Under the pieces are notes generated by a model. It was not told the origin of the DNA, searched no databases, and was given only the letters and a program-made list of their open reading frames with translations. Positions 10,887-27,232 of a DNA stretch of 64,000 nucleotides are shown in pieces (the stretch's first letter is position 1; each line of letters starts with the position of its first letter). The DNA comes from an uncultured Selenomonadaceae bacterium (lineage in GTDB: Bacteria > Bacillota > Negativicutes > Selenomonadales > Selenomonadaceae). Where the stretch lies: contig CAJOIB010000010.1 of the NCBI GenBank assembly GCA_905234705.1, positions 6,616 through 70,615 of the forward strand, written 5' to 3'. The translations under genes and the position numbers were made by a program.

Positions 10887-11117
10887 ATGGCAGAATATTA
10901 TGAAGCGTGTCCGCGTTGCGGCAGGACTAATTTTGGCGAAATTTTACACTGCAAACGCTGCGGGACTGAATTTTGCACAGTTTGTATCGGCAAGCGCACT
11001 TTGCCCGACGGCACGAAATACGAATGTTGCCCGCGTTGCGGCGCTGAATACGACGAAGACGACGATACTATTTACGTTGTCGTTACCGAAAAGGAAAACG
11101 CGCGCAATAAGCGTTAA
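10887..11117 (+). CDS. Small double zinc-ribbon protein
   Basis: 76 aa with CPRCG...CKRCG...C..C...CCPRCG pairs. Preceded by an extended -10 (TGTTATAAT) and a GGGGAG RBS. Confidence 0.55.
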   Translation: MAEYYEACPRCGRTNFGEILHCKRCGTEFCTVCIGKRTLPDGTKYECCPRCGAEYDEDDDTIYVVVTEKENARNKR

Positions 11118-11737: not shown

Positions 11738-11740
11738 AGC

Positions 11741-12187: not shown

Positions 12188-12188
12188 T

Positions 12189-13550: not shown

Positions 13551-13692
13551 AGTTTCAGCCCCCGTCAAAAATTTATCTTCAAATTCTATCAAAAAGTTAT
13601 TCAAAGTCAAGAAACATTTTAACTTGATTTTTGCGCGCGCGGTAATTAAAATATATGGAGTTTTTTTATAAATTGTCGAGGTGGTATTATTC

Positions 13693-14070
13693 ATGGGACA
13701 TCCTGTAACAACAAACCCGTTAATCATTATGCTGATTAATATGACGGTGGTATTCGTCGTGCTGGTTTCGCTAAGTGTATTGATTAATTTGATTCACATG
13801 GTAGATCCGACGAAACAGCCGGAAGTCAAAGAAGACGAAGGCGAAGCGGAAACAGCGGCGATAGTATCAAAATTGCAAGCCGCGCCAAAAGTTGAGCCCG
13901 AACCCGCGCCGGTTGTCGAAGAGGGCATACCGCCTGAAGTTATCGTTGCAATTTCGGCGGCTATTGCGTGTTGCGGAATTTCCGGCAATGTTCGCGCAGT
14001 GCGTGTTGTCAATAATAATAAATCCGCGTGGCGGCAAAATGCGCTCAACAGCGGCTTGACGAACGTTTAA
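13693..14070 (+). CDS. Na+-translocating decarboxylase small (gamma/delta, OadG-like) subunit
   Basis: N-terminal TM helix ([25 protein letters not shown]) followed by an Ala/Pro/Glu-rich linker. It sits directly upstream of the beta-subunit gene. Confidence 0.65.
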
Positions 14071-15292: not shown

Positions 15293-16217
15293 ATGGCGAA
15301 CGATAAAGCACGCCGAGGCGACGAAACTGCCGGCGATAAGAAGGGTATTCTGCTTGAAACCGGTACTAATGAATTTGAAATTGTCGAGTTCAGCATTGGC
15401 AAAGTTAATTACGGAATAAATGTTGCGAAAGTCCGTGAAGTCATTCAGCGCGCGCCGGTTACCGCAATGCCGCAGGCTCACCCGTACATTGACGGGCTTT
15501 TTACCCTGCGCGGCAAAGCTATTCCGCTGGTTAATCTTCCGCGCTGTTTGAATGTGGCGTCCGGCGAAGAAGCTAAAAATATTATCGTTACTGAAATTAA
15601 TAATTACGGCATTTTGGAAAGACATGGAACCCGCGCCCGAAGTCGGCGACCAATCGCGCGTTGTCGGTATTATTAAAATGAGCGACCGAATTGTCCTGTT
15701 GCTCGACTTTGAAACGATTATTGCGGAAATTAATCCGGAAATTAACGCGAAACTTACCACGGTTGAAGACGCCACTGAAGATACCCGTTCGATGCGCTCA
15801 AATATTCACGTGGTTGTTGCGGAAGATTCGGCTATGTTGCGCGATTTGCTTGTTACGACTTTGCACGATTCGGGCTACAGATTTGTTCGCGATTTCGGCA
15901 ACGGTATGGACGCTTGGGAATATCTGCGCACTCTCGCCAACAAAGATGGTCCTATTCATATGCACGTGGGTATCATTGTTTCTGACGTTGAAATGCCGAA
16001 AATGGACGGGCACAGACTTTTGAAACTCGTCCGCGATAACGACCGCCTGCATGAAGTTCCATTTGTACTGTTTTCTTCGTTGATTAGTGAAGAAATGCGC
16101 TTAAAGGGCGAATCACTTGGGGCGAGCGCGCAAATTTCTAAGCCGGAAATTAATCAGCTGATTGATATTCTCGACAAGCTGATTTTCGGAAAAACTTTGA
16201 AGCCGGTACAAGATTAA
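15293..16217 (+). pseudogene. cheV: Chemotaxis protein CheV (CheW domain + receiver), disrupted by an internal deletion and frameshift
   Basis: Frame 1 encodes the CheW-like N-terminus (...TGTNEFEIVEFSIGKVNYGINVAKVREVI...IIVTEINNYGI). Frame 3, from about 15612, encodes FWKDMEPAPE...VVGIIKMSDRIVLLLDFETIIAEINP plus a complete receiver domain (VVVAEDSAMLRD...VSDVEMPKMDG...SKP). About 13-14 codons are missing at the junction. Confidence 0.75.
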
Positions 16218-16244
16218 TTTCGACGAATATTTTAATCGATTGTG

Positions 16245-16279
16245 AAAATGCATTCGTGAAAACGAGTGCGTTTTTTTTT
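16245..16279 (+). terminator. Rho-independent terminator after cheV, abutting the RBS of the next operon
   Basis: GCATTCG-TGAAAA-CGAGTGC hairpin (one G.U pair) with an A-tract upstream and a T9 run at 16271-16279. The GGAGAGGGG RBS starts at 16280. Confidence 0.65.
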
Positions 16280-16296
16280 GGAGAGGGGCAACTTCT

Positions 16297-19248
16297 ATGC
16301 AGAAAAATCTTACCACCGCGGAAAAAATTTCTGATTTGTTGCAGAGCCATTCAAATTTGGAAATTTCTAATCCGTACAGTTTGAAAAGCGACGAACTTGA
16401 AGCCAACGAAATTTGCTTTTACAAAATAAATCTGCTGACATTCGACGAAGAATATCCGCACCGCGAGGCGTTTGAAAATGTTTTGCAGAGCCTTGACAAT
16501 GCGGCTTTTAATTTCGTGTACATTCTCAGCGGCGACGAGCGCGGCATCGAACTTTATATCGGCGTGGTGAAAAATCACAACGAAAATCAGCCCGTCCTCG
16601 GCAAACTTTTGAACGCGGCGAATTACGGAAAAAATATCGCGGGCGCATTTGCGGGGAATTTCGGCGGCAGTTCCCTTGAAAAATTAACCGGTCAAAATTT
16701 GACAAACGCCGTGATAAATTCTGCGCGACAATTCAAAAACGCGGGCGTCATTGTCGGTATCCCGTCCGTCAACGAAACCAAGGACAGCAAATACGGTTTC
16801 CAGGGGATTGACAGGCTGATAAACAGTATGCTCGGCGCGAAATGGCGAATTGTGGTTGTTTGCGAGCCGGTGAATAAATCTGAAATTGCGAAAATCCGCA
16901 GCGAAGTTTACAATCTTTACAATGAATTAGCGCCGCTCGCCCGTCAATCCGTTCAAAAATCTACCAGCAGTAATCAGACGCTGAGCCGCGGCACAAACGA
17001 ATCTACCACTAAGGGCACGAATTATTCTGACAGCGAAAGTTCGTCCGATTCGCACGGCAAACAAAATGATAATTCAAATTCGAGCCACTCCGACCAGACA
17101 AGCAAATCTTACGGCGAAAGTACGACAAAAACCACCGGCAGCAATGAAAGTACCGGCGTCAGTTCCGGCAGTTCGAGCGCGGTTACTTTGGAAATTGCGA
17201 ATAAGCAGGCGGCGGAAATTATTGACTACATCGACAATGAACTTTTGGAGCGCGTGAAAATCGGATTCAGCCGCGGCTTTTTCAAAACTTCGATTTATTA
17301 TATGGGCGAAAAGCCGATTGACGCCGAGCGCCTCAAAGTTGGAATTATTTCGTTGTTTCAAGGCAGCGGCTCATCGTATAGTCCGTTGCGCGCGTATCCG
17401 CTGAATGTCGAGCGCGATTTTAAAATTTTAAACAGTTACCAAAGTTTTTACATCAGCAATGAAAATAATTTGCCAGAAAAATTGACGCTGGCGAGCCGCC
17501 CGCATTTTGACAGCCGCCTTGGTTTGAATACCTATTTGACGTCGGGCGAAGTCAGCCTAATCGCTGGTTTGCCGCAAAAAGAAATTCCTGGTATCACCGT
17601 GAAGGAGAGCGTCGAATTTGGTTTGAATTTTAATCAGAGCGACGGCGAGATTATTTTGGGCAATTTGATTCAGAAGGGGCGCGAATTGCCTAGCATTCCA
17701 ATGAAAATCAGCCGCGAAGTTTTGAGCAAACACGTCTTTATTGCTGGCGTGACTGGTTCGGGCAAAACTACGACCTGCCACAAAATTTTGACGGAAGCCG
17801 CGGTTAAATTTTTGGTGATTGAGCCTGCGAAAACTGAATACCGCGCGCTGATAAATTCGCCGCATTTCGGCAACGTCGTTGTCTTTACGGTGGGCGACGA
17901 ATTGACCGCGCCTTTTCGGTTGAATCCGTTTGAATTGGTGCGCGGCGAAAGTGTTTCTGCTCACGTCGATATGTTGAAGGCTACGTTTACTTCGTCTTTC
18001 CCAATGGAAGCGTCGATGCCGCAGATTTTGGAAGAGGCGATTTACAAAATTTACGAAGACAAGGGCTGGGACATTGACACAAATAAAAATTATCTGATTG
18101 AGGCGCGCGCCGATTATAAAATTGGTGATGAATTTCGCGCAGAATTTGATACTTTTCCGACGCTGACTGATTTTTTGACGGCGCTTGAAAAAATTGTTGA
18201 CGAAAAAGGATTTAGCGACCGCCTGCGCGACGATTATCGCGGCTCACTGATTAGCCGGTTTTCCAATTTGACGAAAGGCTCAAAGGGCGCGCTTTTCAAC
18301 TGTCGCCGCTCGATTGATTTTGAAAAACTGATTAATCAAAACGTCGTCATTGAAATGGAAAATTTGAAATCGGCGGAAGATAAGGCGCTGTTAATGGGAT
18401 TTATTTTAACGCGGCTGGCGGCGGTTATCAAACGGCGAAACAAATTGGATAAAAATTTCCGGCACATAACGCTGATTGAAGAGGCGCACCGGCTTTTATC
18501 GAAAGTTGAATTAGGCGACGGCGGCTCAAAGCGGACGGCGGTTGAAACTTTCACAGATTTACTCGCGGAGATTCGCAAGTACGGCGAAAGTCTGATAATC
18601 GTTGACCAGATACCGAATAAACTTGCGCCCGAAGTTTTGAAAAATACCAACACGAAAATAATTCACCGGCTTTTTGCGCGCGACGACAAAGAAGCGGTTG
18701 GTGATACGATGCTGATGGACGACAAGCAGAAAGAATATTTATCGGCGCTGGAAACTGGGCAGGCGATTATTTTTAGTGAAGGAATGCGCCGCCCCGCGCA
18801 CGTCAAGATTCAGAGCGTGACGGATACCGGCGACAGCGTTGTTGACAATGACGCCGTTAAATCGCAGTTTGTCAAAAATTTTGGCGCGTGGTATTGCGAT
18901 TTGGAAATTTCGCGCAGGTTTAATCGGGCGGTTTATGATTTGCTGAAAAAAATTGCGGTTGAATATCTCGACAAAAATTCATTGGAAATTGAAACTTTAA
19001 ATGCTGTGGCGAAAATTCGCTCGGCTGTGAAAAATTTCTGCGCGACTTTCGATTTTGAAGAAATTGCGGCGGCTGACGTTACGAAATATCTTGCGGAAGA
19101 ATTTACAAGACTCAAAGCAGGTGATAAAATTTTTGAACGGCGGCTTGAGAATTTTCTGAATTTGCTGATTGGCGATTTTACTTTGGAAAAAATTTCGGGT
19201 GACAGGGAAAATTTGAAGTTGCTGATAAATATTAAACGAGAATTTTAA
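16297..19248 (+). CDS. Large HerA/FtsK-superfamily (DUF87-like) ATPase with an unknown N-terminal domain and a Ser/Thr-rich linker
   Basis: 983 aa. Walker A is IAGVTGSGKTTT (about nt 17744-17776). Walker B/sensor is HITLIEEAHRLL (about nt 18463-18492). The HerA-type C-terminal block is LAEIRKYGESLIIVDQIPNKLAPEVLKNTNTKIIHRLFARDD. Residues ~215-300 are low-complexity Ser/Thr/Asn (GTNESTTKGTNYSDSESSSDSHGKQNDNSNSSHSDQTSKSYGESTTKTTGSNESTGVSSGSSS). Confidence 0.7.
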   Translation: MQKNLTTAEKISDLLQSHSNLEISNPYSLKSDELEANEICFYKINLLTFDEEYPHREAFENVLQSLDNAAFNFVYILSGDERGIELYIGVVKNHNENQPVLGKLLNAANYGKNIAGAFAGNFGGSSLEKLTGQNLTNAVINSARQFKNAGVIVGIPSVNETKDSKYGFQGIDRLINSMLGAKWRIVVVCEPVNKSEIAKIRSEVYNLYNELAPLARQSVQKSTSSNQTLSRGTNESTTKGTNYSDSESSSDSHGKQNDNSNSSHSDQTSKSYGESTTKTTGSNESTGVSSGSSSAVTLEIANKQAAEIIDYIDNELLERVKIGFSRGFFKTSIYYMGEKPIDAERLKVGIISLFQGSGSSYSPLRAYPLNVERDFKILNSYQSFYISNENNLPEKLTLASRPHFDSRLGLNTYLTSGEVSLIAGLPQKEIPGITVKESVEFGLNFNQSDGEIILGNLIQKGRELPSIPMKISREVLSKHVFIAGVTGSGKTTTCHKILTEAAVKFLVIEPAKTEYRALINSPHFGNVVVFTVGDELTAPFRLNPFELVRGESVSAHVDMLKATFTSSFPMEASMPQILEEAIYKIYEDKGWDIDTNKNYLIEARADYKIGDEFRAEFDTFPTLTDFLTALEKIVDEKGFSDRLRDDYRGSLISRFSNLTKGSKGALFNCRRSIDFEKLINQNVVIEMENLKSAEDKALLMGFILTRLAAVIKRRNKLDKNFRHITLIEEAHRLLSKVELGDGGSKRTAVETFTDLLAEIRKYGESLIIVDQIPNKLAPEVLKNTNTKIIHRLFARDDKEAVGDTMLMDDKQKEYLSALETGQAIIFSEGMRRPAHVKIQSVTDTGDSVVDNDAVKSQFVKNFGAWYCDLEISRRFNRAVYDLLKKIAVEYLDKNSLEIETLNAVAKIRSAVKNFCATFDFEEIAAADVTKYLAEEFTRLKAGDKIFERRLENFLNLLIGDFTLEKISGDRENLKLLINIKREF

Positions 19249-19264
19249 TTTAGGGGGAAGCTTT

Positions 19265-19900
19265 ATGTCAATTTTTGGAGCAATTTTTTCTGGGATAAGT
19301 AGCGTGCTGAGCGTAGTGTCAAATGTATTCACGCCGATTTTGACGAAAATTCTTGGACCGGCGCTTGAGAAACTTGGGCGGGCGTTTGAGGCTTTTTTCA
19401 AAGAATTGGGGTTGATTGAGCCGGAAGAGAAAGTTGAAGAAATTGGAGACCGCGCATTGCAGGCGGAAGTCGACGAAATTCATCCGGTTAAAATTGAAAC
19501 TTTCGACAATCACGAAAAATATTTGGCGGCGCTCAAAGAATATGAGCCGAGCGCTGAAAAATCCGCGCTGATTCCGGTTGACGATAAACTTCACAAAGGG
19601 CTTGAGGTTTTAATGGGGCTGGCGATTTCGCGCTACGGGCAGTCTATGAGCGAATTTGGGCAGATTATTTTGAATAACCCCGAATTTTACAGTCAATTTG
19701 GCAGGCTGGCGGAAATTGGCAGTATCGCCCGCGATAAAACTGAAACTTTCGCCGATATCGTGAATTACATTGCGGGCAAAAGTATGAGCAGCGAAAAAAC
19801 TGACACGGCGATTGACGCGCTCGTTGACATTGAGAAAAAAGTTAATCCGGAGGCGACTGACGCTGAAATTTTGAAAACTGTTAGCGATTTGAAAAAGTGA
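19265..19900 (+). CDS. Hypothetical protein with small-residue-rich hydrophobic N-terminus
   Basis: 211 aa. The N-terminus is MSIFGAIFSGISSVLSVVSNVFTPILTKILGPAL (Gly/Ser-zipper-like), followed by an acidic helical region. A GGGGGA RBS lies 16 nt after the upstream stop. Confidence 0.6.
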   Translation: MSIFGAIFSGISSVLSVVSNVFTPILTKILGPALEKLGRAFEAFFKELGLIEPEEKVEEIGDRALQAEVDEIHPVKIETFDNHEKYLAALKEYEPSAEKSALIPVDDKLHKGLEVLMGLAISRYGQSMSEFGQIILNNPEFYSQFGRLAEIGSIARDKTETFADIVNYIAGKSMSSEKTDTAIDALVDIEKKVNPEATDAEILKTVSDLKK

Positions 19901-20373
19901 GGCGATTGATTTTGTTGCAATATTTTTTAGTTATCTGCAAAAATCGGTTTTACGTTTACCGAACTGACGGCGCGCCGGAATATTTTGGTGGCAATGATTA
20001 TTTTGAATATGAGCAGAGCAAGATTCGCGAGGCGGCGGCTCAACTTGTCGAGGAAATTTTGAGCAACAACAATCTTGCCGACAGAAACGAATTACAATTT
20101 GCGCTGATTGAGAATAGCGACGCCGTGCGCAATGAGATTGTGCTGAAGGAACTGAAGAATTTGGTAGTTCAGCGTTACGCGGTGAATGATTTAGTTTACG
20201 CGGCGATGGTTGATTTGGCTAAAAATCCTGCGCTGTACATTCGCGAATTGGGCGTAAATTATGACGGCGAAAGTCACCATTTGGACGCGAATAATCCGAT
20301 GTGGCGGGGCGCTTATAGTTTGCTGGCGTTGACGATTGAGCCGATTGAATTGTTAAAGCGCGTGGGGAGGTAG
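19897..20373 (+). CDS. Hypothetical protein
   Basis: 158-aa ORF. Its GTG start overlaps the upstream stop (GTGA). No family recognised. The start codon is uncertain. Confidence 0.5.
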   Translation: MRRLILLQYFLVICKNRFYVYRTDGAPEYFGGNDYFEYEQSKIREAAAQLVEEILSNNNLADRNELQFALIENSDAVRNEIVLKELKNLVVQRYAVNDLVYAAMVDLAKNPALYIRELGVNYDGESHHLDANNPMWRGAYSLLALTIEPIELLKRVGR

Positions 20374-20377
20374 TTTT

Positions 20378-21922
20378 ATGGAAAAGATTATTTGTGGCAA
20401 ATGTCACGCCGAGAATAATGCAAAGCGGCATTTCTGCGCGAAGTGCGGGGCTTTTCTGCACACGGATTTTGACGCGAAAGTTTATGCGTTGCCGGAAGTT
20501 AAAATGATGCGCGTTGTGGAAAATTTATTGCGAGTTCCGCACCAGCCAATAAATTGGGACGACGTGACGGACGCTTACACGGCGAAGGCTGAAAAATGGC
20601 AGGCGCTGTTCAATGTCCCTGGAATGGGCGCGGAAACAAATTCTGCGGTTGTCGAGAAGATTGAAGATTTTTTGAATCTGTGCCGCAATGCCGATTTTCA
20701 AATTGCGTTCGTCGGTACGATTAAAACGGGCAAATCGACGCTGATAAATGCGCTGTTAGGCAAAGAATACGCGTCAATGGACGTGACGCCGGAAACCGCC
20801 GCTTTGACGAAATTTCGTGCCAGCCCGCGCGATTATGTTGACGTGACTTTTTACACGCAAAAGGAATGGGACAACCTTTGGGCTTCGCGCTCCAAGGACG
20901 CAACCGATTTTATGAAGGAATACGAATTGCTTGACGGCGATTCGCAAAAATCTAAATGGATTAATCAGCCGCAGCGCCATATCGAAATGGCTAACGAAGA
21001 TATTCAGCAGGAATTAAAAATTTGGTCGAGTTCACAGCGGGTGGAACATTATTTCGTCAAGGAAATTGAAGTTGGAATTTCGACGTTGCCGCGGGATTTT
21101 CCGGCGCAGGTTGTATTCGTCGACACGCCAGGATTATCAGATCCGGTTGCATATCGTTCGGAGCTGACGAAAAATTATATCCGGCGGGCAAATGCGGTTT
21201 TCGTTTGCGTCGAGGCGCAGAAAATGATGTTCGAGGAAATGAACACAATCCAATCGGTAATGTCGCTGTCTTCGCACGACAAGAGCAAAGTTTTTGTCAT
21301 AGCCACGCACTGGGACACATTGCACGACCCAGAAACGGATTGGGCAAAGCAGAAAAATTTTTACATTCGGCGCTTAACCGGACCGGCTTTTTATGACAAT
21401 CAGCAAATGGCGGCGGATAATATTTTGTATTCGGCGGCGTACATTTATAATCTGTGCAAAAATTTTCACGCGCTCGACCCGAATAACAGGGCTGATAAGC
21501 GGCAGATTCGCACGCTTGAAGATTTCGGCGATTATTTTGACTGCGCGCCCGACGATTTGCGGACGATTGGCGAAAAGACTAACATTGTGGCGATTAGGAA
21601 AATTATTCGCGACCGGCTCGCGGCGAATTATAAAAAATTTTTGGCGGGCGATATTAAGCGGAAATTTATGGACGTGAATTTTAATCTGAATCGCGTTGCC
21701 AGCGAAAATAAAGCGAGTATGATTGAGCGCTTAACGGCGTCCTATGCTGACGAACAAGAATTAGCCGCGAAATTGGATGAACAGCGCAAAAAATGCGATA
21801 ACGTCCGGCAAGTTTCCGACCAGCTTAACGAAATTATGAAGAAGGTTAAGCACAAGACTAAAACGCGCGCCGATGTTATTTGCGGGAAATTGCGGCTGAA
21901 ATTGAGCGAGTCGAAAAAATGA
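20378..21922 (+). CDS. Dynamin-like GTPase with N-terminal zinc ribbon
   Basis: Zinc ribbon is [20 protein letters not shown]1 is [16 protein letters not shown] (about nt 20714). G2-region Thr is [10 protein letters not shown]3 is [10 protein letters not shown] (about nt 21121). G4-like is VIATHWD. The C-terminal tail is helical and charged. Confidence 0.75.
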
Positions 21923-22863
21923 GCGCGGCTATAACTTTGCAGGAAATTTCTGCTAAATTGGATTATGGGCTGATAGGCGACGGCGCTTTGAAAGTTTCAG
22001 CGTTTAAATTTGCCGCGGAAGCTGATGAAAATTCTTTAGCGGTAGTACTCAGCGATAAAGAGGCGATTGACACTGCGGCGCGTGCGGTATTGACGACGCC
22101 GAGGATTTTGCCGATTGATAAAACTTTTCTGTACTGCAATTTTAAAAAGATGAGCGCGGCGATAGTTGACGTTGCGCGGCTGATGATTGACGCCGGAATT
22201 TATCCCGATTATGAAAAAAATTTTGAGCAGGTTGAAAAGCACTGCGCGATGTTCGGTAAAAATTTTGAGATTGGTGAAGGCAGTTACGTTGGCGCTTTTG
22301 CAAATATCGGCGAAAATGTTAAAATTGGCAGGAATTGTAAGATTGGCGCGGGCGTTTATATCGGCTCTGACGTTGAGATTGGCGACGGCGTGAAAATTCA
22401 TTCTGGCGCGCGGATTGGCGCTAATTGCCATTATCATTTTACGCAACACCACAAGCAGAAAAGTTTTTGCGGGATTGGGCGGGCGCTGATTGAAGATGGC
22501 GTTGAAATTGGCTACAACACGGTGATTCAGCGCGGCTCTTTGTCCGATACCGTGATTGGCGCGGGTACGATTATTGGCAATTTGGTTGAGATTGGACACG
22601 ACGTAAAAATCGGCAAAGATTGTTTGATAGTTTCGCAGGCGGGCATATGCGGCGGCGTGGAGATTGGCGAACGGGTTCAGATTTACGGGCAAGTTGGAAT
22701 TGCTGACAGGGTTAAAATTGGCAGCGACGCAACGATTATGGCGAAATCCGGCGTTACCAAAGACATTCGCGCAGGGCAAGTTGTTTCGGGAATGTTCAGC
22801 CGCAGTCATTTAGACGAATTGAAACGGCAGGCGAAATTTAGGAAACTGACTAAGGGGGAATAG
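21919..22863 (+). CDS. LpxD-like left-handed beta-helix N-acyltransferase (out of lipid A context)
   Basis: The ATG overlaps the dynamin-like stop (ATGA). It has an LpxD-type N-terminal domain ([43 protein letters not shown]), hexapeptide repeats, a conserved catalytic-His context ([10 protein letters not shown]) and an LpxD-type C-terminal helix ([17 protein letters not shown]). Confidence 0.7.
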
Positions 22864-22866
22864 ACT

Positions 22867-23658
22867 ATGGGCGGAGGCGGTGGCTGCGGAGATATTTGTT
22901 GCATTACGCATTGCGGCTTTTGCTGTGTTTTTAAATGCAGTGACTGCGGCGATTGTTGCGTGGGTCATTGTAGCGGAGATTGTGGCGGTACTCGTGTTTC
23001 CAGTGGCGGTGGCGGTTGTTCTGATTATCAAGAAGATCCGCAAACTCGGCACGCGGAGATTATTGCTAACGAATTGGCGGAAATGAAGAAGCGCTCGACT
23101 GAGGACGCCAAACGCGAAGAGGACGCCATTCTCAAAGACATTAACGAAACCATGGACGAATTTATTGATTGGCTCAAAAAAATTAACAGCGAACCGTACG
23201 GCGGGCGCAGTCTGAATATTAATATCACGAAAATTAATGAGCTCAATGAAGAATTGCGAAACGCGGTTATCGGCTCAATCGGCAAACATTTGGATTCTAA
23301 GCTGGTTATGACTGACGAAAACGTCAAGCTGATTCTTTCCGATATGAATGATAAGACGCGCAAGAAAAAATTTGACGAGTTTTATCGGCAAACTCTGCGC
23401 GACGCTATTAGGAATTTGATTAAAATTATTGAAGATTCCGTTCAAAAACAATCTGAGAGTATCGAGCGCGAAATTCAAAATCGCATTAATGAAGTCCAGC
23501 AAAGTATGTCCGAAGAGGCGGGCGCGTTTGAGGAACTTCAGCAGATTAAACAGCAGAAAAATTTAGGTATGGCGGAAAAACGCGTTGAATATATGTACTA
23601 CGAAAATCTGTGCGATATTATGTTCGACCAGCTGAAACTTTCCGGCATTAAAAGGTGA
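22867..23658 (+). CDS. Cysteine-string / coiled-coil protein
   Basis: 263 aa. The N-terminus is MGGGGGCGDICCITHCGFCCVFKCSDCGDCCVGHCSGDCGGTRVSSGGGGCSDY, with 13 Cys in 51 residues. The remaining ~200 aa are charged heptad-like helices. An AAGGGGG RBS lies 8 nt upstream. Confidence 0.7.
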   Translation: MGGGGGCGDICCITHCGFCCVFKCSDCGDCCVGHCSGDCGGTRVSSGGGGCSDYQEDPQTRHAEIIANELAEMKKRSTEDAKREEDAILKDINETMDEFIDWLKKINSEPYGGRSLNINITKINELNEELRNAVIGSIGKHLDSKLVMTDENVKLILSDMNDKTRKKKFDEFYRQTLRDAIRNLIKIIEDSVQKQSESIEREIQNRINEVQQSMSEEAGAFEELQQIKQQKNLGMAEKRVEYMYYENLCDIMFDQLKLSGIKR

Positions 23659-23664
23659 TTCGCT

Positions 23665-25011
23665 ATGCTCAATTTAATTTCCGGAAATGAAAATATTCTT
23701 GCGCTGATGTACGCTATGTCGAGCGATTTGGATTTGAAAGATAATTCCGCGCGTTTGGAAAATCTTCGCGCAGTGGTGGAAAATTCGGCGGAAGTCAAGC
23801 CGTCGGTTTTCAATTATCACGTCGAGGCGGCGGAAAAAATTTTGATTTACAATACGCTTTACAATTCAATGACTTGGTTAACGAAAGAGGAATTTGCTCA
23901 ACTTGGCGGCGAAATTTTTGATGACGAATTGCGGCGGAATTTTCTTGAGAGCGGAATTTGCGTGGCGGCGAATGTTGACGAGCGGGCGAATTATCATAAG
24001 TGGCGGATTCTTTTTCAAAAAAAGTCCGAGCATTTGTCGGTGAATATTACCACGACGCTGAAATGCAACGCGCGCTGTCCCTATTGCTACGAGCACGGCG
24101 TCAAGCACATTGACTTTGATGACACTAAGATTGACGCGCTGATAGATTTTATTAAGCGGCACAAAAAAAATTCGCCGGTTAAACTGAATTGGTTTGGCGG
24201 CGAACCTTTTATGAATCCGAAAATTATTGACACCGTGACGCGGCGGCTCGGCGAAATCGGCTTTCCATTTTTCTGCTACGCCATTACCAACGGAAATTTA
24301 TTGACGCGGCAAATGATTAATACCAAATTCAAGCAATGGCATATTCGCGGCGTTCAGATAACTTTGGACGGCACGGCGGAACAATACGCGGCGCGCAAAA
24401 ATTATACCGGCAATCAGCGCGATGTTTTCAAAAAAATTTTAAATCGTATTCAATGGCTCGCTGAAGCAAATATTCACGTTGACGTGCGGCTGAATATCGA
24501 CCGCCAAAATCTGTGCGATATGCTCAATCTTATTTACATTTTGCAGGCGCGTTTTGACGGCGAAAAAAATATTTGTTATTATCCGGCGTTTGTTACGGGC
24601 TTGCAGGATAAATTGACTGAAACTGAGAAATTAGATTTTGTCAAGGAAATGTTTAACGCGGTTGCCAATTCCGCCAAACTCAGCATTACAAATCGGCTGT
24701 ATTCTTTCCCGCGCAGTATTCCGTGTATGCGCAATGATCCGCAGTCATTTTCTGTTGATGTTTACGGGCGGATTTATAATTGTGAGCATTTGGTCGGGCG
24801 CGCTGAAAAATCGTTAGGAACTTTAAAACGTTTGCCGACAAAAATTAATGACGCGCGGCTTGAAGAAAATCTGCGCGAGGAATGCGGAAGTTGCGTATTT
24901 CTGCCGAAATGTATGGGCGGCTGTGCGTCGAATTTGGAAACCGGCGATAGCGCGTGCCTGATTGAAAAATATTTAATTAAAGCATATATGCAGTATATGT
25001 GCGAACGCTAG
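23665..25011 (+). CDS. Radical SAM enzyme with C-terminal SPASM domain (peptide/protein maturase type)
   Basis: The CxxxCxxC motif is CNARCPYC (nt 24064-24087). The SPASM motifs are CMRNDPQSFSVDVYGRIYNC (Cx13Gx4C) and CGSCVFLPKCMGGC (Cx2Cx5Cx3C). The N-terminal ~110 aa resemble the RRE/PqqD-like leader-binding region of such maturases (ILIYNTLYNSMTWLTKEEFAQL...LESGICV). Confidence 0.85.
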   Translation: MLNLISGNENILALMYAMSSDLDLKDNSARLENLRAVVENSAEVKPSVFNYHVEAAEKILIYNTLYNSMTWLTKEEFAQLGGEIFDDELRRNFLESGICVAANVDERANYHKWRILFQKKSEHLSVNITTTLKCNARCPYCYEHGVKHIDFDDTKIDALIDFIKRHKKNSPVKLNWFGGEPFMNPKIIDTVTRRLGEIGFPFFCYAITNGNLLTRQMINTKFKQWHIRGVQITLDGTAEQYAARKNYTGNQRDVFKKILNRIQWLAEANIHVDVRLNIDRQNLCDMLNLIYILQARFDGEKNICYYPAFVTGLQDKLTETEKLDFVKEMFNAVANSAKLSITNRLYSFPRSIPCMRNDPQSFSVDVYGRIYNCEHLVGRAEKSLGTLKRLPTKINDARLEENLREECGSCVFLPKCMGGCASNLETGDSACLIEKYLIKAYMQYMCER

Positions 25012-25020
25012 GAGGTAAAA

Positions 25021-25383
25021 ATGGACGACATTGCAAAAATTTTGGAACAGCAGGAAGAAATTTTACGCTCAATACACCGGCTGGAGGAAGAAGTTAGCCT
25101 AATCAAATTTTTACACCACAGTCAGTACGACGAAACAAATGCGCGGCTTGAAATGTTCGAGCGGTCATTGCGGCAAATCGACGAACAACTTGCACTTTCA
25201 AATATGAGCCAAGAATCGCGCGACGACAAAATAAAAAAATTGCTTAGTGAATTTCAGCGTGCGAATCAATCGCGGCGGCTGAATATGATTGAAGAATTGC
25301 TCCGGTTAATCGCCGCCAATCAGATAATGGATTCGCTCGAACCGCCGAAAAAACCGCGGGGCAATAAATCGCAGAAAAAATAA
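25021..25383 (+). CDS. Small coiled-coil protein, hypothetical
   Basis: 120 aa, predicted helical and charged (ILEQQEEILRSIHRLEEEVSLIKF...), with a basic tail (PPKKPRGNKSQKK). An AGGAGG RBS lies upstream. Confidence 0.55.
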   Translation: MDDIAKILEQQEEILRSIHRLEEEVSLIKFLHHSQYDETNARLEMFERSLRQIDEQLALSNMSQESRDDKIKKLLSEFQRANQSRRLNMIEELLRLIAANQIMDSLEPPKKPRGNKSQKK

Positions 25384-25400
25384 TCTTGGGAGGAATTTTA

Positions 25401-26795
25401 ATGAGCATACTAGCTTCGGTCGTAGTACCGCACCCGCCTATCATTTTGCCGGAAATTGGCAAGGGCGAAGAATCCAAAATCGCCGCAACTACCGCCGCTT
25501 ATAAAGAAATTTCAAAGCGCGTGGTCGAACTTGCGCCCGATACGATTGTTATCACCAGCCCGCACTCGATTATGTACGCGGATTATTTTCACATTTCGCC
25601 TGGCGAATCGGCTAGCGGGAATATGGCGAGATTTCGCGCGCCCGAAGTCGATTTGACTATTAACTATGACGTTGAATTTGTTGACAAATTGAGCGCGGCG
25701 GCTATGGCTGAAAATATTCCCGCCGGTAAAATTGGCGAGCGCGAAAAAAGTTTAGACCACGGCACGATGATTCCGCTTTATTTTTTGGAAAAAGCAGGTT
25801 TAGATTTTGACGCGGTTAAATTTTTGCGCATAGGGCTTTCTGGTTTGCCCGCGGCGGCGCATTATCATTTTGGGCAGGTTATTTCAAAGGTTGCGGACGA
25901 ATTGAACAGGCGCGTTGTATTCGTGGCGAGCGGTGACCTTTCGCACAAACTCAAAGCGGATGGTCCTTACGGTTTTGTTGAAGAAGGTCCGAAATTCGAC
26001 GCCGAGGTTATGGAAAATTTATCCGACGAAGATTTTTTGAAATTGTTGACGATGGATAATACGATGTGCAATCGCGCGGCTGAATGCGGCTTGAGGAGTT
26101 TTTGGATAATGGCGGGCGCGCTCGATAAAAAATCCGTTCAAGCTGAAAAATTGTCCTATGAAGGACCTTTCGGCGTTGGCTACGGCGTTGTTTGGTTTAA
26201 CATTAACGGCGTTGACAGTTCGCGGAATTTTGCCGCCAAGCTTGAAAATTTTAAGCATGAAGAATATTTAAAGCGCATTGAAACTGAAGACGAATACGTG
26301 AAACTGGCGCGCTACAGCCTTGAAACTTACATTAAGACGCACAAGGCGGCGGAAATGCCCAAAGATTTGCCTGCTGAAATGTTGAATCGGCGTTCGGGAA
26401 CTTTCGTCAGTCTTCATAAAGACGGGAATTTGCGCGGCTGTATCGGAACATTTTTGCCGACAACTGAATCTATCGCGCAGGAGATTTTGCAAAACGCCAT
26501 TTCTGCCTGTTCGAGAGACCCGCGCTTTTCGCCGGTCGAAGAATCCGAAATTGAAGACCTTGACATCAGCGTTGACGTTTTGTCTGAACCGGAGCGAATT
26601 TTTGACGTCAAAGATTTGGACGCAAAAAAATACGGCGTTATCGTCGAGAACAACGGACGCCGCGGTTTATTGTTGCCGGATTTGGAAGGCGTTAATACCG
26701 TGCAAGAGCAACTCGCCATCGCTATGAAAAAAGGCGGTATCCCCGCCAATGAAAAAGTTAACGTGTGGCGTTTCCAAGTAATTCGCCATCATTAA
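25401..26795 (+). CDS. Fusion of class III extradiol dioxygenase-like (LigB/Memo superfamily) domain and AMMECR1 domain
   Basis: N-terminal domain: VVPHPPIILPE...ITSPHS...SLDHGTMIPLYFL...VASGDLSHKL. C-terminal AMMECR1 domain: SGTFVSLHKDGNLRGCIGTF...ACSRDPRFSPV...YGVIVENNGRRGLLLPDLEGV. Start set at the ATG at 25401 after a GGGAGGA RBS. Confidence 0.8.
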   Translation: MSILASVVVPHPPIILPEIGKGEESKIAATTAAYKEISKRVVELAPDTIVITSPHSIMYADYFHISPGESASGNMARFRAPEVDLTINYDVEFVDKLSAAAMAENIPAGKIGEREKSLDHGTMIPLYFLEKAGLDFDAVKFLRIGLSGLPAAAHYHFGQVISKVADELNRRVVFVASGDLSHKLKADGPYGFVEEGPKFDAEVMENLSDEDFLKLLTMDNTMCNRAAECGLRSFWIMAGALDKKSVQAEKLSYEGPFGVGYGVVWFNINGVDSSRNFAAKLENFKHEEYLKRIETEDEYVKLARYSLETYIKTHKAAEMPKDLPAEMLNRRSGTFVSLHKDGNLRGCIGTFLPTTESIAQEILQNAISACSRDPRFSPVEESEIEDLDISVDVLSEPERIFDVKDLDAKKYGVIVENNGRRGLLLPDLEGVNTVQEQLAIAMKKGGIPANEKVNVWRFQVIRHH

Positions 26796-27232
26796 ATCGC
26801 CGCATCTTCGTAATTTTCTTCATCGTCATAAGATGGAGTATTTAAATTGTCCCAAAAAATTCTGTAGTTCATACTGGATTTGACTTGCCCGCGCGCCGGA
26901 CAATCCGCGTCTTTGTGCGTGAAAATGTGATGAACTTCCTGCCCCGACGGAACAATTAATTCTTTCGGATAAAAATGAACATTTCGCGCAGACCAAATCC
27001 AAAAGTCGTTGTTGTTCACTGCGCGAATGTTTTCCAGTAAAAAGTGCGTGATTCTGGCATCCTGGTCGCCGGAATTTATGAAGTGCCCGTATAAAACCGC
27101 TTGCCCTTCATTCAAAATGAGTTTATCGGCTTGAAATTTCAAATTCGCTCCGGCGCTCGCAACGCCATTTGCAAAAATAAAAATCGCAACAGCCATAATC
27201 GCCGCAACAAAAAAATTTTTCAAGATAATCAC
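26792..27232 (-). CDS. Hypothetical exported protein
   Basis: 146 aa with an N-terminal signal/anchor (FFVAAIMAVAIFIFANGVASA). No family recognised. Its stop overlaps the stop of the convergent AMMECR1 gene (TTAA). Confidence 0.5.
   Translation of the reverse strand: MIILKNFFVAAIMAVAIFIFANGVASAGANLKFQADKLILNEGQAVLYGHFINSGDQDARITHFLLENIRAVNNNDFWIWSARNVHFYPKELIVPSGQEVHHIFTHKDADCPARGQVKSSMNYRIFWDNLNTPSYDDEENYEDAAI

Follow-up and report, generated by a model that had tools for sequence, protein, structure and literature searches.

What kind of system is encoded by a run of genes that brings together a P-loop ATPase, a dynamin-like GTPase, an LpxD-like acyltransferase, a cysteine-rich protein and a radical SAM enzyme is the question raised by a locus of an uncultured Selenomonadaceae bacterium, which lies within the window analysed here, i.e., the whole 64,000-nucleotide stretch of contig CAJOIB010000010.1. 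An earlier note on this DNA had described nine same-strand ORFs spaced by -4 to 17 nt, and the ORF calls in the window confirm their number (n=9), coordinates and junctions. All nine, here numbered g1 to g9, lie on the plus strand; the successive gaps are 16, -4, 4, -4, 3, 6, 9 and 2 nt, the last being 17 nt if g9 begins at the ATG at 25401, and stop and start codons overlap as GTGA at 19897 (g2/g3) and ATGA at 21919 (g4/g5). A purine-rich, Shine-Dalgarno-like sequence, which had been credited to every ORF, precedes g1, g2, g4, g6, g7, g8 and g9 and is weak or absent upstream of g3 and g5. The domain calls (DUF87/HerA, zinc ribbon with Dynamin_N, LpxD-like LbH, radical SAM with SPASM, LigB with AMMECR1) were borne out by Pfam and NCBIfam. 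That the block is one transcription unit is plausible and goes no further, because a search for a promoter of g1-g8 identified none and terminator-like sites within the block are at the level of shuffled sequence (31 vs 30.8 expected, no excess).

The block is wedged, as had been described, between a decayed cheV with its terminator and a convergent ORF (26792-27232) that overlaps the stop of g9. The cheV gene has lost 41 bp and is thereby disrupted, as comparison with a metagenome contig of 99.8% identity that carries it intact shows, and 3' of it lies, on the plus strand at 16244..16280, an intrinsic-terminator hairpin (GCAUUCG-UGAAAA-CGAGUGC followed by U9) with a dG of -24.2 kcal/mol and a z of -3.38, which none of 200 shuffles matched in folding. 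The hairpin, for which no Rfam family match was found, either terminates cheV or belongs to the cassette as a leader element. Position 16245, formerly given as the start of the block, falls inside it; g1 starts at 16297, the hairpin ending 17 nt upstream of its ATG. At the other end the ninth gene has to be set apart. The LigB/Memo-AMMECR1 fusion gene g9 (25386/25401..26795) is found 3' of the block only in relatives with an ATPase of 87% identity or more (L001, L002, L006, L007), g1-g8 occur at none of 80 other loci that carry a g9 homologue, and in a related genome (L098) the order is cheV, a 259-aa ORF and g9, with the block absent. The cheV/g9 site thus holds the cassette in this lineage and a single 259-aa ORF in the relative, an "empty site". 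Because its linkage to the block is confined to close relatives in this way, g9 is excluded from the conserved unit, which is g1-g8 only (16297-25383), so that the nine-gene unit of the earlier note stands for its first eight members and fails for the last. With 133.7 bits to TIGR04335 (AmmeMemoRadiSam protein A; cut-off 99) and a match to AmmeMemoRadiSam protein B, g9 is read here as a resident neighbour gene of AmmeMemoRadiSam type, outside the cassette.

An ATPase-anchored scan of species-level genomes gave 270 confirmed stretches, of which the best 80 of 270 loci were kept. At 23 of these best 80, g1, g2, g4, g5 and g6 occur together in conserved order amid changing flanks, so that the co-localisation supposed in the earlier note extends across genomes; g3 is detectable at most of the 23 and the radical SAM gene is also present at 19 of them. 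The hosts, all of them anaerobes of gut, rumen or mouth, belong to at least four phyla (Bacillota, Spirochaetota, Bacteroidota and Synergistota) and comprise Selenomonadaceae, Roseburia, Dorea, Eisenbergiella, Oribacterium, Eubacteriaceae, Treponema, Prevotellaceae and Fretibacterium, to which Megasphaera (L003) can be added from outside that scan list. Identity of g1 is 50-58% between phyla, and in the more distant Selenomonadaceae it reaches 67-69%. The flanks include integrase/relaxase genes, type I restriction-modification genes, WYL regulators, NERD-UvrD helicases and housekeeping genes. Many flanks are ordinary housekeeping genes, not defence islands. It is hardly to be doubted that g1-g8 are a real conserved unit, and they form a horizontally mobile cassette of two modules, A (g1-g3) and B (g4-g8). 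One locus (L005) holds the radical SAM gene and module A with g4-g6 missing and looks like a deletion derivative, though it is still an exception, and one lineage (L087/L088) holds module B without module A, its dynamin-like protein being shorter at the N-terminus; as this sole lineage with module B alone may be a remnant, module B is only possibly autonomous.

Module A is anchored by g1 (16297..19248), a 983-aa ATPase of the VirB4/HerA/FtsK superfamily that consists of an N-terminal alpha/beta domain, a Ser/Thr/Asn-rich insert (~218-296) predicted at low confidence as a long beta-hairpin in the AF2 model (pLDDT 70.7), a P-loop ATPase domain (~450-850) and a C-terminal helical bundle. P-loop ATPases of the VirB4/HerA type are typically hexameric. 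Pfam DUF87 is matched at 4.5e-8 and NCBIfam families only in part; there are 986 homologues at E<=1e-5. The Walker A motif GSGKT and many residues of the ATPase domain are invariant across the 20 sequences compared. The two genes that follow had been taken for orphans, which they are not. The first, g2 (19265..19900), encodes a 211-aa protein with a hydrophobic, small-residue-rich and Gly-zipper-like N-terminus of ~50-60 aa (maximum KD19 1.77), the conserved motif LG[LI]I.PE..[VI]EE[LI]GD[KR]A[LI]QAE and a helical domain. It matched nothing in Pfam, NCBIfam, PADLOC or PHROG, and its cluster of 82 members in 86 sources, equal in number to that of the ATPase, is found nearly always directly beside the ATPase gene, of which it is the obligate partner; it is probably a membrane anchor or membrane-active subunit. 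The second, g3 (19897..20373), encodes a small protein of ~152-158 aa, the true start of which may lie a few codons downstream of the GTG, and adds, in this architecture, a third member to module A; it is present in 28 loci and has 27 homologues, all unnamed. Its AF2 model (pLDDT 81.6) has a beta-beta-beta-alpha-beta-alpha-beta-alpha fold resembling an RNase H-like or actin/Hsp70-like half-domain, with weak Foldseek matches (best E 0.011) to S11, RuvX and actin-fold proteins, and hhalign matches it to the optional C10 protein, within the N-terminal domain of the latter (74% probability, E 2.8e-5).

The ATPase-g2 pair occurs in almost all loci fetched, also with partners other than module B, i.e., a ~930-aa Hsp70-like protein together with C8 and C11/C13 proteins, Type III-A CoCoNuT genes, or TerY-P-like vWA/PP2C genes, and is thus a reusable core joined to exchangeable partner modules across bacteria. 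An FtsK/HerA-superfamily ATPase with a small helical protein has been reported as an unexplained CoCoNuT add-on (Bell et al. 2024). The likeness lies in the VirB4-like ATPase domain, the variable beta-strand insert and the operon shared with a small helical protein, and at four of our scan loci and a plasmid locus (L038, L062, L063, L076, L086) the pair stands, as Bell et al. report, at the 3' end of helicase/McrB-like/DUF2357 operons. That g1-g2 are this pair fits, the families being equated by description and gene context rather than by accessions; the EccE3-like fold that Bell et al. saw at the ATPase N-terminus was not among the top 50 Foldseek matches of g1, which are dominated by the ATPase domain. 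Here, by contrast, the pair is joined to g3 and module B instead of McrBC/CoCoNuT genes, and module B goes unmentioned by Bell et al. A further likeness is to the anti-phage SIR2-HerA (Nezha) and DUF4297-HerA systems, in which a HerA-clade ATPase likewise has exchangeable partner genes: their HerA chains are structurally similar to g1 (E 1e-7 to 1e-5) and PADLOC HerA models match its C-terminal half. The cassette, however, is without a Sir2 or DUF4297 nuclease, and g1 is ~400 residues longer, has another N-terminal domain and the Ser-rich insert, is closer to VirB4 than to HerA and scores 47-57 bits against NCBIfam equivalogs of the anti-phage HerA with cut-offs of 800-850.

Module B begins with g4 (20378..21922), a 514-aa dynamin-like protein (Pfam Dynamin_N, 2.3e-19, and Zn_Ribbon_1) in which an N-terminal CxxC...CxxC zinc ribbon precedes a GTPase domain with G1 (GxxKxGKST), G3 (DTPG) and G4 (T[HY][WF]D) motifs, as conserved in 25 sequences; among solved structures, the dynamin-like protein 5owv of Campylobacter jejuni is closest (E 3.2e-16). 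It shares its GTPase domain with the dynamin-like proteins of Eleos (LeoA/LeoBC), Bacillus DynA and C. jejuni DLP1/2, and some cassette variants carry two such genes, as in the known pairs. It differs from them in being short, in having the zinc ribbon, in containing neither a hydrophobic paddle nor a transmembrane segment (maximum KD19 1.08) and in being embedded with modification enzymes and an ATPase, as in no described system of this kind; PADLOC matches to LeoA/LeoBC cover only short segments of g4 and of the profiles.

The next gene, g5 (21919..22863), encodes a 314-aa LbH acyltransferase of the LpxD family, homologous over its full length (N-terminal domain, LbH and C-terminal helices), which just passes NCBIfam PRK00892 (210.8 vs cut-off 207) and fails the equivalog TIGR01853 (197.3 vs 242.5). 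Alignment to LpxD in the PDB places the catalytic histidine at H227, and H227 and D228 are invariant in all 22 members of the family examined, whereas the second LpxD histidine position is variable. The gene is present in 25 of 26 loci with a readable g6, and in the exception (L009), where the ORF call broke up the region, tblastn still detects it. It lies apart from any fabZ-lpxA-lpxB context, and inside the cassette also in loci assigned to Lachnospiraceae and related Clostridia, in which we know of no lipid A synthesis; an acceptor substrate other than UDP-acyl-GlcN is predicted.

The candidate substrate of both modifying enzymes is g6 (22867..23658), a Cys-rich helical protein of 263 aa that had no significant family or PDB match and whose family forms 309 clusters at 50% identity. 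It opens with MG(G)n, which leads into ~45 aa of CC[VI]x[DN] and CGFCC repeats and then a helical domain of ~200 aa, the best-conserved part in the alignment of these proteins of 230-265 aa. An MG start is seen at all 26 loci with a readable g6 and recurs in 78 of 83 close homologues; among distant full-length representatives the count is 88 of 107. Position 5 of the repeat unit is D or N in 314 of 366 units, and among Cys spacings 4, 5 and 8 are over-represented while 2 is almost absent. The adjoining gene, g7 (23665..25011), encodes a 448-aa radical SAM/SPASM enzyme with CX3CX2C at residues 133-140, a SPASM domain at 354-424 (TIGR04085, 39.1 vs cut-off 27), Pfam Radical_SAM and the N-terminal extension common to RiPP maturases. 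In NCBIfam it matches best CefB (141 bits; Cys-every-fifth), Clo7bot, the Cys-rich TIGR04463 and PapB, in each case far under the equivalog cut-off, and among solved structures the closest is the radical SAM protein 5wgg (E 2.6e-8), the thioether-forming maturase CteB. Thioethers are formed by PapB in six CX3D/E motifs (PMC9413430), and the CX3D pattern of such substrates is contained in the CC[VI]x[DN] unit of g6. Where the radical SAM gene is present, g6 has at least 4 Cys in its first 55 residues (22 of 22 loci, one read by eye because its ORF was mis-called), and where it is absent (L013, L015, L019, L026, all of which have 2 kb or more of downstream sequence) the g6 N-terminus is hydrophobic with exactly 1 Cys (4 of 4), a covariation that is not a strong statistic because it reflects few independent events, perhaps two losses of the radical SAM gene. 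Repeat and covariation together support the link between maturase and Cys-rich protein proposed in the earlier note, and g7 probably modifies the g6 tip; the Cys-rich region could instead bind metal or Fe-S clusters.

What g5 does to g6 is a more doubtful matter. Eukaryotic MGC... motifs undergo N-myristoylation and Cys palmitoylation, i.e., dual acylation. In the bacterial Aat system, AatD acylates an N-terminal Gly (PMC7943197). The resemblance consists in an MG start followed by Cys clusters and in gene linkage to an acyltransferase, but g5 is of the LbH/LpxD type rather than a GNAT-type NMT or an Lnt-like AatD, g6 has no signal peptide, and acylation is here hypothetical. Gly2 need not be the site, because an MG start is also common in g2 of architectures without any LbH enzyme, and the target of g5 could instead be a Cys, a lipid or a sugar nucleotide; acylation of g6 by g5 is accordingly offered as a tentative proposal. 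Cys-free members of the g6 family have g2-like amphipathic N-termini (e.g., MGFWS...), which argues that the Cys-rich tip substitutes for a membrane-binding helix. The last gene, g8 (25021..25383), encodes a coiled-coil protein of 120 aa in which the C-terminal helix (EELLRLIAANQIMDSLE) is conserved, the family motif being R[LM]LL..S[VI]M[DE]. Its counterparts, of 97-400 aa, recur in module B 5' or 3' of the radical SAM gene, and a protein with the C-terminal motif adjoins the g6 and radical SAM genes in nearly all module-B loci, the motif having been recognised by eye outside the Negativicutes, to which the 15 matches of the g8 HMM are restricted.

From these parts a mechanism can be proposed in which g7 would form thioether macrocycles (ranthionine-like, Cys-X3-Asp/Asn) from the N-terminal CC[VI]x[DN] repeats of g6 and g5 would acylate g6 from an acyl-ACP donor, as LpxD does, on the Gly alpha-amine after Met removal or on a remaining Cys, so that a helical scaffold would come to carry a compact, lipidated anchor for the membrane. 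The scaffold and g8 would recruit the dynamin-like protein, which is otherwise membrane-blind, and a membrane-tethered ATPase-g2 complex would sense or energise the process; g6 is thus predicted as g7 substrate, possibly g5 substrate, and membrane-targeting subunit. The most likely role of the cassette is that of a conflict or anti-phage system acting on membranes, which it would seal or remodel or disrupt abortively, a role favoured because of the distribution of the cassette and the company kept by module A. We give the whole chain, from cassette through mechanism to role, a probability of roughly 0.5; the assignment to conflict or defence, taken by itself, falls slightly short of even odds. 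Family searches found no nuclease, toxin or other recognisable effector in the cassette. None of the viral contigs searched encodes the ATPase. PADLOC gave partial single-protein matches only (HerA, mad8, LeoA, pVip) and no named system, and a full-text literature search gave no paper combining the components. The view that no such system has been described thus holds for module B, which appears undescribed, and not for the ATPase-helical pair. A spore assembly role, also considered in the earlier note, is unlikely because the cassette occurs in hosts assigned to Treponema, Prevotellaceae and Fretibacterium, in which we know of no spore formation.

The alternative that survives best, although it is unlikely, is that the cassette serves a housekeeping type of membrane maintenance or vesiculation, in which under stress the dynamin-like protein and lipid-anchored g6/g8 would repair or bud the cytoplasmic membrane and the ATPase would act as regulator, with no role in phage or plasmid conflict. 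Membrane repair and vesicle release have been connected with bacterial dynamin-like proteins, DynA and LeoA among them, and the housekeeping genes around many cassettes, the want of a recognisable toxin or nuclease effector and the shared anaerobic habitats of gut, rumen and mouth would all agree with it. The cassette is, however, patchily distributed across phyla at 50-58% identity and variable in genomic position, some copies lying beside integrase and relaxase genes and others beside WYL regulators; it is missing from a close relative at the same site, and module A occurs elsewhere with McrBC-type CoCoNuT and TerY-P systems, all of which therefore points to an accessory, exchangeable function.

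It is improbable that the locus is a RiPP-like cluster in which g6 is a long precursor that g7 cross-links and g5 acylates, the ATPase exporting the released lipopeptide as a toxin or signal, even though g7 belongs to the peptide-maturase branch of radical SAM/SPASM enzymes and, as in the ranthipeptide and sactipeptide pathways PapA/PapB (freyrasin), CteA/CteB and CefA/CefB, lies beside a tandem-Cys gene whose CX3[D/N] repeats fit known cores and include the CX3D spacing that PapB cross-links. Fatty-acylated RiPPs also exist as a precedent. The candidate modified region, however, is the extreme N-terminus of a conserved ~250-aa protein with its ~200-aa helical domain best conserved, rather than the C-terminal part of a short leader-bearing peptide; protease, ABC exporter and immunity gene are all missing from the cassette, in which g2 alone has a hydrophobic segment of transmembrane grade; g7 reaches 97-141 bits where the cut-offs of these families are 340-600; and variants without the Cys-rich tip and the radical SAM gene still hold g4, g5, g6 and g8.

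Nor is it very probable that the cassette derives from, or assists, a machine for conjugation or secretion, in which the VirB4-like ATPase and a VirB3-like small hydrophobic partner would move DNA or protein across the membrane with module B as cargo or assembly factor. In its favour, Foldseek ranks TrwK/VirB4, from the type IV secretion system of R388, first for g1 (E 1e-12), ahead of HerA and TrwB; NCBIfam matches g1 to CedD and VirB4; relaxase and integrase genes adjoin the Megasphaera locus; and Bell et al. raised a possibility of this kind. Yet genes for VirB6, VirB8, VirB10, VirD4, a pilin or WXG100-like proteins were not seen in the cassette or consistently nearby, and most loci adjoin no mobile-element genes. 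The cassette hosts include both single-membrane and double-membrane bacteria, which would be unusual for an envelope-spanning machine and makes a secretion role less fitting.

Fortuitous adjacency of independent genes, with g5 as the cell's own lipid A enzyme (Negativicutes make lipid A, and g5 is just over the PRK00892 cut-off) and the radical SAM and AMMECR1 genes as an AmmeMemoRadiSam system (g9 matches its proteins A and B), is refuted by the recurrence of the g1-to-g7 order in four phyla, including hosts not known to make lipid A, and by the absence of linkage between g9 and g1-g8 in 80 of 80 loci, with g5 falling under the LpxD equivalog cut-off and g7 being a SPASM peptide maturase whose best NCBIfam matches listed are all peptide maturases or related SPASM enzymes. 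In the present genome g9 is probably co-transcribed with the cassette through read-through.

The earlier note had read positions 16245-26795 as an operon of nine genes; the unit whose adjacency recurs in other genomes, with differing flanks, consists of the first eight (g1-g8, 16297-25383, here called the cassette), and the ninth gene is a neighbour that is linked to it in close relatives only. In order, the cassette encodes an ATPase (g1), a small helical protein (g2) and a small RNase H-like protein (g3), together module A, and then a dynamin-like GTPase (g4, or DLP), an acyltransferase of the LpxD-like/LbH type (g5), a Cys-rich protein (g6), a radical SAM (rSAM)/SPASM enzyme (g7) and a coiled-coil protein (g8), together module B; g9 is a LigB-AMMECR1 protein. 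The g1 ATPase has 986 homologues at E<=1e-5. A scan with an ATPase alignment, taking one genome per species, confirmed 270 relatives, and the best 80 of these loci were kept, searched by tblastn with the nine window proteins and had all their ORFs clustered. In 23 of these best 80 loci, g1, g2, g4, g5 and g6 occur together and in order, with g3 detectable in most of the 23 and g7 in 19. The hosts are Selenomonadaceae, Roseburia, Dorea, Eisenbergiella, Oribacterium, other Lachnospiraceae and Eubacteriaceae on the Bacillota side, and also a UBP6 bacterium, Treponema (Spirochaetota), Prevotellaceae (Bacteroidota) and Fretibacterium (Synergistota), in which module B precedes module A; Megasphaera hexanoica provides an additional instance. 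Identity to the g1 of the window is 50-58% across phyla as compared to 67-69% in the more distant Selenomonadaceae, a pattern that fits horizontal transfer. No ATPase relative was found on viral contigs scanned with the ATPase alignment, which argues that the cassette is not phage-borne, and a plasmid search returned the full cassette on none, its distant relatives being mostly CoCoNuT-linked or limited to the ATPase domain.

The genes on either side of the cassette vary by locus: Megasphaera has an integrase, a relaxase and NERD-UvrD, several copies adjoin WYL-WCX regulators, and elsewhere there are type I restriction-modification (R-M) systems and Ser/Thr kinases, and also RecA, MetRS and GcpE. 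A defence-island test on 75 non-redundant flanking proteins gave the same mixture (type I R-M, Ser/Thr kinases and integrase versus RecA, MetRS, GcpE and others), and flank content speaks weakly for defence. The likeliest role of the cassette appears to be that of a membrane-acting conflict or defence system, at a rough probability of 0.45. In its favour are the patchy cross-phylum distribution, the variable insertion sites and an empty site in a relative, the WYL regulators and mobile-element genes beside some copies, and the pairing of module A with systems of the McrBC type and TerY-P; against it are the many housekeeping flanks and the lack of a classical effector. Membrane maintenance or vesiculation is a less probable explanation, for which the housekeeping flanks may be counted on one side and the patchy distribution on the other.

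The nine ORFs of the window are co-directional (16297-26795) and are separated by 16, -4, 4, -4, 3, 6, 9 and 2 nt, the last of these (between g8 and g9) becoming 17 nt if g9 starts at the ATG at 25401. The GTGA (19897) and ATGA (21919) stop/start overlaps reported earlier are present in the sequence, and SD-like purine tracts precede most of the starts, but not every one as had been claimed. The block does not begin at 16245, a position that falls within the cheV terminator hairpin (16244-16280; dG -24.2 kcal/mol, z -3.4), the end of which is 17 nt 5' of the g1 ATG at 16297. Promoter-like and terminator-like sites internal to the g1-g9 block are no more frequent than in shuffled sequence, and a promoter scan of the region upstream of g1 found no convincing sigma-70 promoter; that g1-g9 form one transcription unit, as first proposed, is plausible, but a promoter for the block was not found.

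The ninth gene follows the cassette only in L001, L002, L006 and L007, homologous loci in which g1 is at least 87% identical, and the Selenomonadaceae copies with a g1 of 67-69% identity have other genes after g8. A metagenome scan with g9 returned 80 loci, none of which carries g1-g8. In one of them, L098 (g9 80% and cheV 88% identical), an intact cheV and its terminator are followed by a single 259-aa ORF and then g9, an arrangement which indicates that the cassette sits at a variable spot between two resident genes. The possibility that g7 and g9 make up an AmmeMemoRadiSam system was rejected, since the top families of g7 (among the NCBIfam best matches listed) are all peptide maturases and related SPASM enzymes, and the g9-g7 pairing is confined to close relatives. 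The g9 protein itself (LigB/Memo plus AMMECR1) scores 133.7 against AmmeMemoRadiSam protein A (cut-off 99) and is marginal, at 26.1, against protein B (cut-off 26).

On the other side of the cassette, cheV (CheW and receiver domains; 15293-16217) is decayed as had been noticed, by a 41-bp deletion between 15613 and 15614 relative to the 99.8%-identical metagenome contig L001, where the gene is intact and encodes 321 aa; the gene may recently have become a pseudogene, or the difference may be one of strain or assembly. Both in the window (16244-16296) and in L098 (9075-9109), the SD and start of the next gene lie within ~10-17 nt of the cheV terminator, which leaves no room for a promoter downstream of it, so that the downstream gene or genes may be expressed by read-through of the terminator or from a promoter upstream of the hairpin. 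An Rfam scan of the 64-kb window found no riboswitch or leader family, its sole gathering-threshold match being a tRNA gene at 53288-53361. The wider region is also flanked by three paralogous ORFs of ~155 aa from one ORF cluster (10348-10827 and 31352-32256), two of them in tandem beside tsaD, which are assigned to the acetyltransferase family by Acetyltransf_1-type Pfam matches on the corresponding genes of L001.

The family assignments made from motifs in the earlier note were all correct by Pfam and NCBIfam. No significant match to g2, g3, g6 or g8 was found in any of the libraries searched (Pfam, PADLOC, NCBIfam and PHROGs), and a PHROGs scan of all nine proteins gave generic or partial matches and no system. 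PADLOC (v2) likewise recognized no named system, with isolated partial matches to mad8, HerA, LeoA and pVip and nothing for g2, g3, g5, g8 or g9, nor for the partner proteins of the other architectures in which the ATPase occurs. Full-text literature searches produced no paper that unites the components. The view that no described system has this composition therefore holds for module B (DLP, LpxD-like enzyme, MG-polyCys protein, rSAM enzyme and coiled-coil protein) and for its union with the ATPase-g2 pair, both of which appear to be undescribed, but the pair itself has been noticed before, without a function. The cassette appears to be new in its architecture, though every individual domain is from a known superfamily.

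Among the loci examined, module B is nearly always accompanied by module A. The exception is L087/L088, which lacks the ATPase module and has a first DLP that is N-terminally shorter by 87 aa; it may be a deletion derivative of the type seen in L173 (an ATPase plus two DLPs), and the notion of module B as an autonomous unit was set aside on these grounds. In this two-DLP variant (L087/L088, 7646-14424; L173, 5401-12445) the DLPs bracket the LbH, Cys-rich, 237-aa and rSAM proteins, and in L087 an FtsZ/tubulin-like gene lies 4 kb downstream. Two related genomes, L005 and L018, have module A at the same polysaccharide-synthesis locus with the same flanks; L005 has no DLP, LbH or Cys-rich gene but keeps a truncated C10 (an optional ~350-aa protein present in many copies), an rSAM gene and a 62-aa remnant resembling g8, all of which are missing from L018, in what looks like a stepwise decay of module B. 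The g8-type proteins range from 97 to 400 aa, share a conserved C-terminal helix R[LM]LL..S[VI]M[DE] (statistically detectable by HMM or regular expression only in Negativicutes, and by eye elsewhere), and their genes stand on one side or the other of the rSAM gene in almost every copy.

The g4 protein combines a zinc ribbon with Dynamin_N, the closest solved structure being the C. jejuni DLP 5owv. Its GTPase motifs are conserved and it has no hydrophobic segment; access to membranes would require an adaptor, for instance g6 or g8. Membership in Eleos (LeoA/LeoBC) was rejected: there is one DLP at the window locus, which scores 33 bits against NF041922 (cut-off 325), and the PADLOC LeoA/LeoBC matches are confined to short segments both of g4 (residues 243-331, 83-137 and 104-288; E 3e-12 to 9e-9) and of the profiles, which are ~560-600 positions long.

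The g5 protein is a full-length LpxD homologue (PRK00892, 210.8 versus 207) that falls below the LpxD equivalog (TIGR01853, 197.3 < 242.5) and has cassette genes as its neighbours, and it is thus set apart from the LpxD of lipid A synthesis; its orthologues inside the cassette occur in loci assigned to Lachnospiraceae, Dorea and Roseburia, which are not known to make lipid A. The catalytic His-Asp of LpxD has its counterpart in H227/D228, which is invariant in 22/22 family members, H227 being aligned with the histidine of the IAHQ segment of C. trachomatis LpxD, which we take from the structural literature to be the catalytic His247. A second histidine, conserved in LpxD and presumably His284 in the aligned chlamydial enzyme, is not kept in g5. 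LpxD is an acyl-ACP-dependent N-acyltransferase, and it is for this reason that g5 is proposed to acylate g6, either on the Gly alpha-amine that Met removal would free or on a Cys. This is the weakest step of the proposal, because g2 proteins, too, often begin with MG where the architecture has no LbH gene. In the metagenomic locus L089, FabD-, FabG-, FabF- and FabZ-like genes (10579-14009) directly follow a full cassette and share its strand, and FabG and FabF have no ACP gene between them. These genes could be a host fab operon that is there by chance, or they could supply acyl groups specifically to the LpxD-like enzyme.

The hallmarks of the g6 proteins are an MG start and a Cys-rich tip. 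The former is found in 26/26 loci, in 78/83 database homologues (the exceptions being mostly fragments) and in 88/107 full-length matches from a profile search of 1.84 billion representatives, which returned 309 clusters at E<=1e-3. Units of the form CC[VI]x[DN] make up the tip, and in 314/366 of them the fifth residue is D or N; spacings of 4, 5 and 8 between Cys residues are over-represented, and hardly any Cys stand 2 apart. These units contain the Cys-X3-Asp pattern that the rSAM/SPASM enzyme PapB turns into six thioether rings in the ranthipeptide PapA (PMC9413430), and they echo the "Cys-every-fifth" name of CefB, the best family match of g7. Every locus with an rSAM gene has at least four Cys in the first 55 residues of g6, and the four loci without one (L013, L015, L019 and L026), which retain g4, g5, g6 and a g8-type protein, have a tip that is hydrophobic and Gly-zipper-like, with exactly one Cys. 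We infer that the tip is a membrane-binding element and that its Cys-rich form is rendered functional by g7; from the covariation and the motif analogy, thioethers are the predicted modification of the Cys repeats. Distant, Cys-free members of the g6 family have N-termini indistinguishable in style from those of g2; g6 as a paralogue of g2 was rejected for the helical domains (hhalign probability 0.2%), the N-terminal motif type alone being in common.

The g7 enzyme has a Radical_SAM match in Pfam (5.5e-12), the CX3CX2C motif as CNARCPYC, a SPASM domain at residues 354-424 (TIGR04085, 39.1 versus a cut-off of 27) and, as its nearest solved structure, the radical SAM protein 5wgg. It belongs to none of the named equivalogs closest to it, which are maturases of Cys-rich peptides (CefB, Clo7bot, TIGR04463 and PapB; 141, 135, 129 and 97 bits versus 600, 600, 525 and 340) and, being so far under all four cut-offs, is placed in a separate subfamily. 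Nor does the locus have the layout of a RiPP gene cluster: g6 is a protein of 230-265 aa with its Cys repeats at the extreme N-terminus, as compared to a short leader-core precursor, and Pfam found no protease or transporter domains in the cassette. A released lipopeptide, for which the kinship of g7 with peptide maturases might be cited, is for the same reasons a less probable rival reading.

In module A, the ATPase and g2 clusters have 82 members each over 86 sources and are almost always adjacent. Matches to the Pfam DUF87/HerA central domain, FtsK_SpoIIIE and TrwB place g1 in the FtsK/HerA/VirB4 superfamily, and the NCBIfam entry that it matches best, over part of its length, is an uncharacterised family named "serine-rich protein". 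Across 20 aligned homologues, GSGKT and many positions of the ATPase domain do not vary, the alignment being 1106 columns wide for proteins of ~983 aa, which indicates that homologue length varies. In Foldseek searches the AF2 model (pLDDT 70.7) is closest to TrwK/VirB4 (E 1e-12), followed by HerA (1e-9), archaeal and anti-phage chains included, and TrwB (1e-5). An accessory of secretion or conjugation, to which the first of these matches might point, is a less probable rival reading. As an anti-phage HerA, g1 was rejected (NF042943 and NF042944, 57 and 47 bits versus cut-offs of 800 and 850), and neither Pfam nor PADLOC found a Sir2 or DUF4297 domain in g2-g9, as SIR2-HerA or DUF4297-HerA would have. 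The Ser-rich insert of g1 (218-296) contains modelled strands at 236-254 and 261-279, where pLDDT is ~30.

The N-terminal 50-60 aa of the g2 proteins are hydrophobic, with many Gly, Ala and Ser residues and MGFWS or MGLFS as a frequent start; after them come an LGLI.PE..VEELGDKALQAE motif and a helical domain. Compared by description and gene context, the ATPase-g2 pair matches the "EccE3-HerA" pair of Bell et al. (2024), which has a small helical protein in its operon and stands at the 3' end of some Type III-A CoCoNuT operons: VirB4 is the best structural match of g1, its Ser-rich insert is modelled with beta-strands (at low confidence) and its homologues differ in length, g2 is beside the ATPase in nearly all loci, and helicase, McrB-like and DUF2357 genes lie upstream of the pair in L038, L062, L063, L076 and L086. 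No EccE chain was among the top 50 Foldseek matches of the whole g1 model, a list dominated by the ATPase domain. The function of the pair was left open by Bell et al.

The pair is spread over Bacillota, Pseudomonadota, Campylobacterota, Bacteroidota, Spirochaetota and other phyla, and outside the cassette it has three other sets of partners. One consists of a ~930-aa Hsp70-like protein, a ~260-aa coiled-coil protein and a protein of ~150-170 aa, in Campylobacterota, Gammaproteobacteria (Vibrionaceae among them), Desulfovibrio, Bacillales and Clostridia. Another consists of helicase, McrB-like and DUF2357 genes (Acinetobacter, Methyloprofundus, Halalkalibacter and a Photobacterium plasmid), and the third of vWA and PP2C genes. 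The Hsp70-type architecture (L046, L049, L050, L058, L065, L068, L072, L075, L078, L081-L083 and others) has one or two of the ~930-aa Hsp70/actin-like proteins and sometimes a duplicated g2, on both sides of the ATPase; its partner proteins had no Pfam or PADLOC match, and it may be another undescribed system. The g3 model (pLDDT 81.6) is a beta-beta-beta-alpha-beta-alpha-beta-alpha RNase H-like unit with weak structural matches; its identification with a defined Hsp70/actin subdomain was rejected (Foldseek E 0.011 or worse), and that likeness is kept as a resemblance. By sequence, g3 is probably related to the N-terminal domain of C10; a single family of g3 and the ORF clusters C10, C11, C13 and C103 was rejected, only g3-C10 (74%) and C11-C13 (97.6%) being supported by hhalign probability.

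These elements can be joined into a single scheme, in which a modified g6 anchor, a recruited DLP and control by the ATPase would make up an immunity or conflict system of a new, membrane-acting class, and which as a whole we consider unlikely. The cytosolic, helical g6 would gain a eukaryote-like "MG plus Cys-string" membrane anchor, on which g7 would form tandem Cys-X3-Asp/Asn thioether rings and the LpxD-derived g5 would lipidate the N-terminus; the anchor would recruit the paddle-less g4, and the VirB4/HerA-type g1, tethered to the membrane by the Gly-zipper protein g2, would control the whole assembly. If this is true, g6 would be the first protein on which an LpxD-family enzyme acts, a new kind of substrate (a full-length protein) for such acyl-ACP acyltransferases outside lipid A synthesis, and g7 would offer the first case of rSAM "RiPP-type" chemistry that builds a permanent protein domain rather than a released peptide, with a ranthipeptide-type maturase making a fixed N-terminal domain on a full-length protein. 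The recruitment and function of bacterial dynamin-like proteins are long-standing questions, and these proteins could gain a defined membrane adaptor. To our knowledge, the widespread pair of ATPase and small membrane protein has so far been seen only as an unexplained CoCoNuT add-on, and it would acquire a first testable hypothesis. The cassette, which is abundant in anaerobes of the rumen, gut and mouth, would also be a new candidate defence or conflict system; screens for defence built around E. coli and Bacillus reach these organisms poorly. The covariation of the Cys-rich tip with the rSAM gene, together with the near-universal MG start, makes the chemistry directly testable.

A small family of 84-183 aa (ORF clusters C27 and C50) carries, close to the N-terminus, a helix like that of g8 ("LL..SVM") and, at the C-terminus, the conserved (I/L)SFYV..(D/E)..(I/L)(F/V). 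It occurs at either end of the cassette in Lachnospiraceae, upstream of the ATPase in L012, L014, L016 and L026 and downstream of the rSAM gene in L027, L029 and L030, and may be a further cassette component or a regulator.
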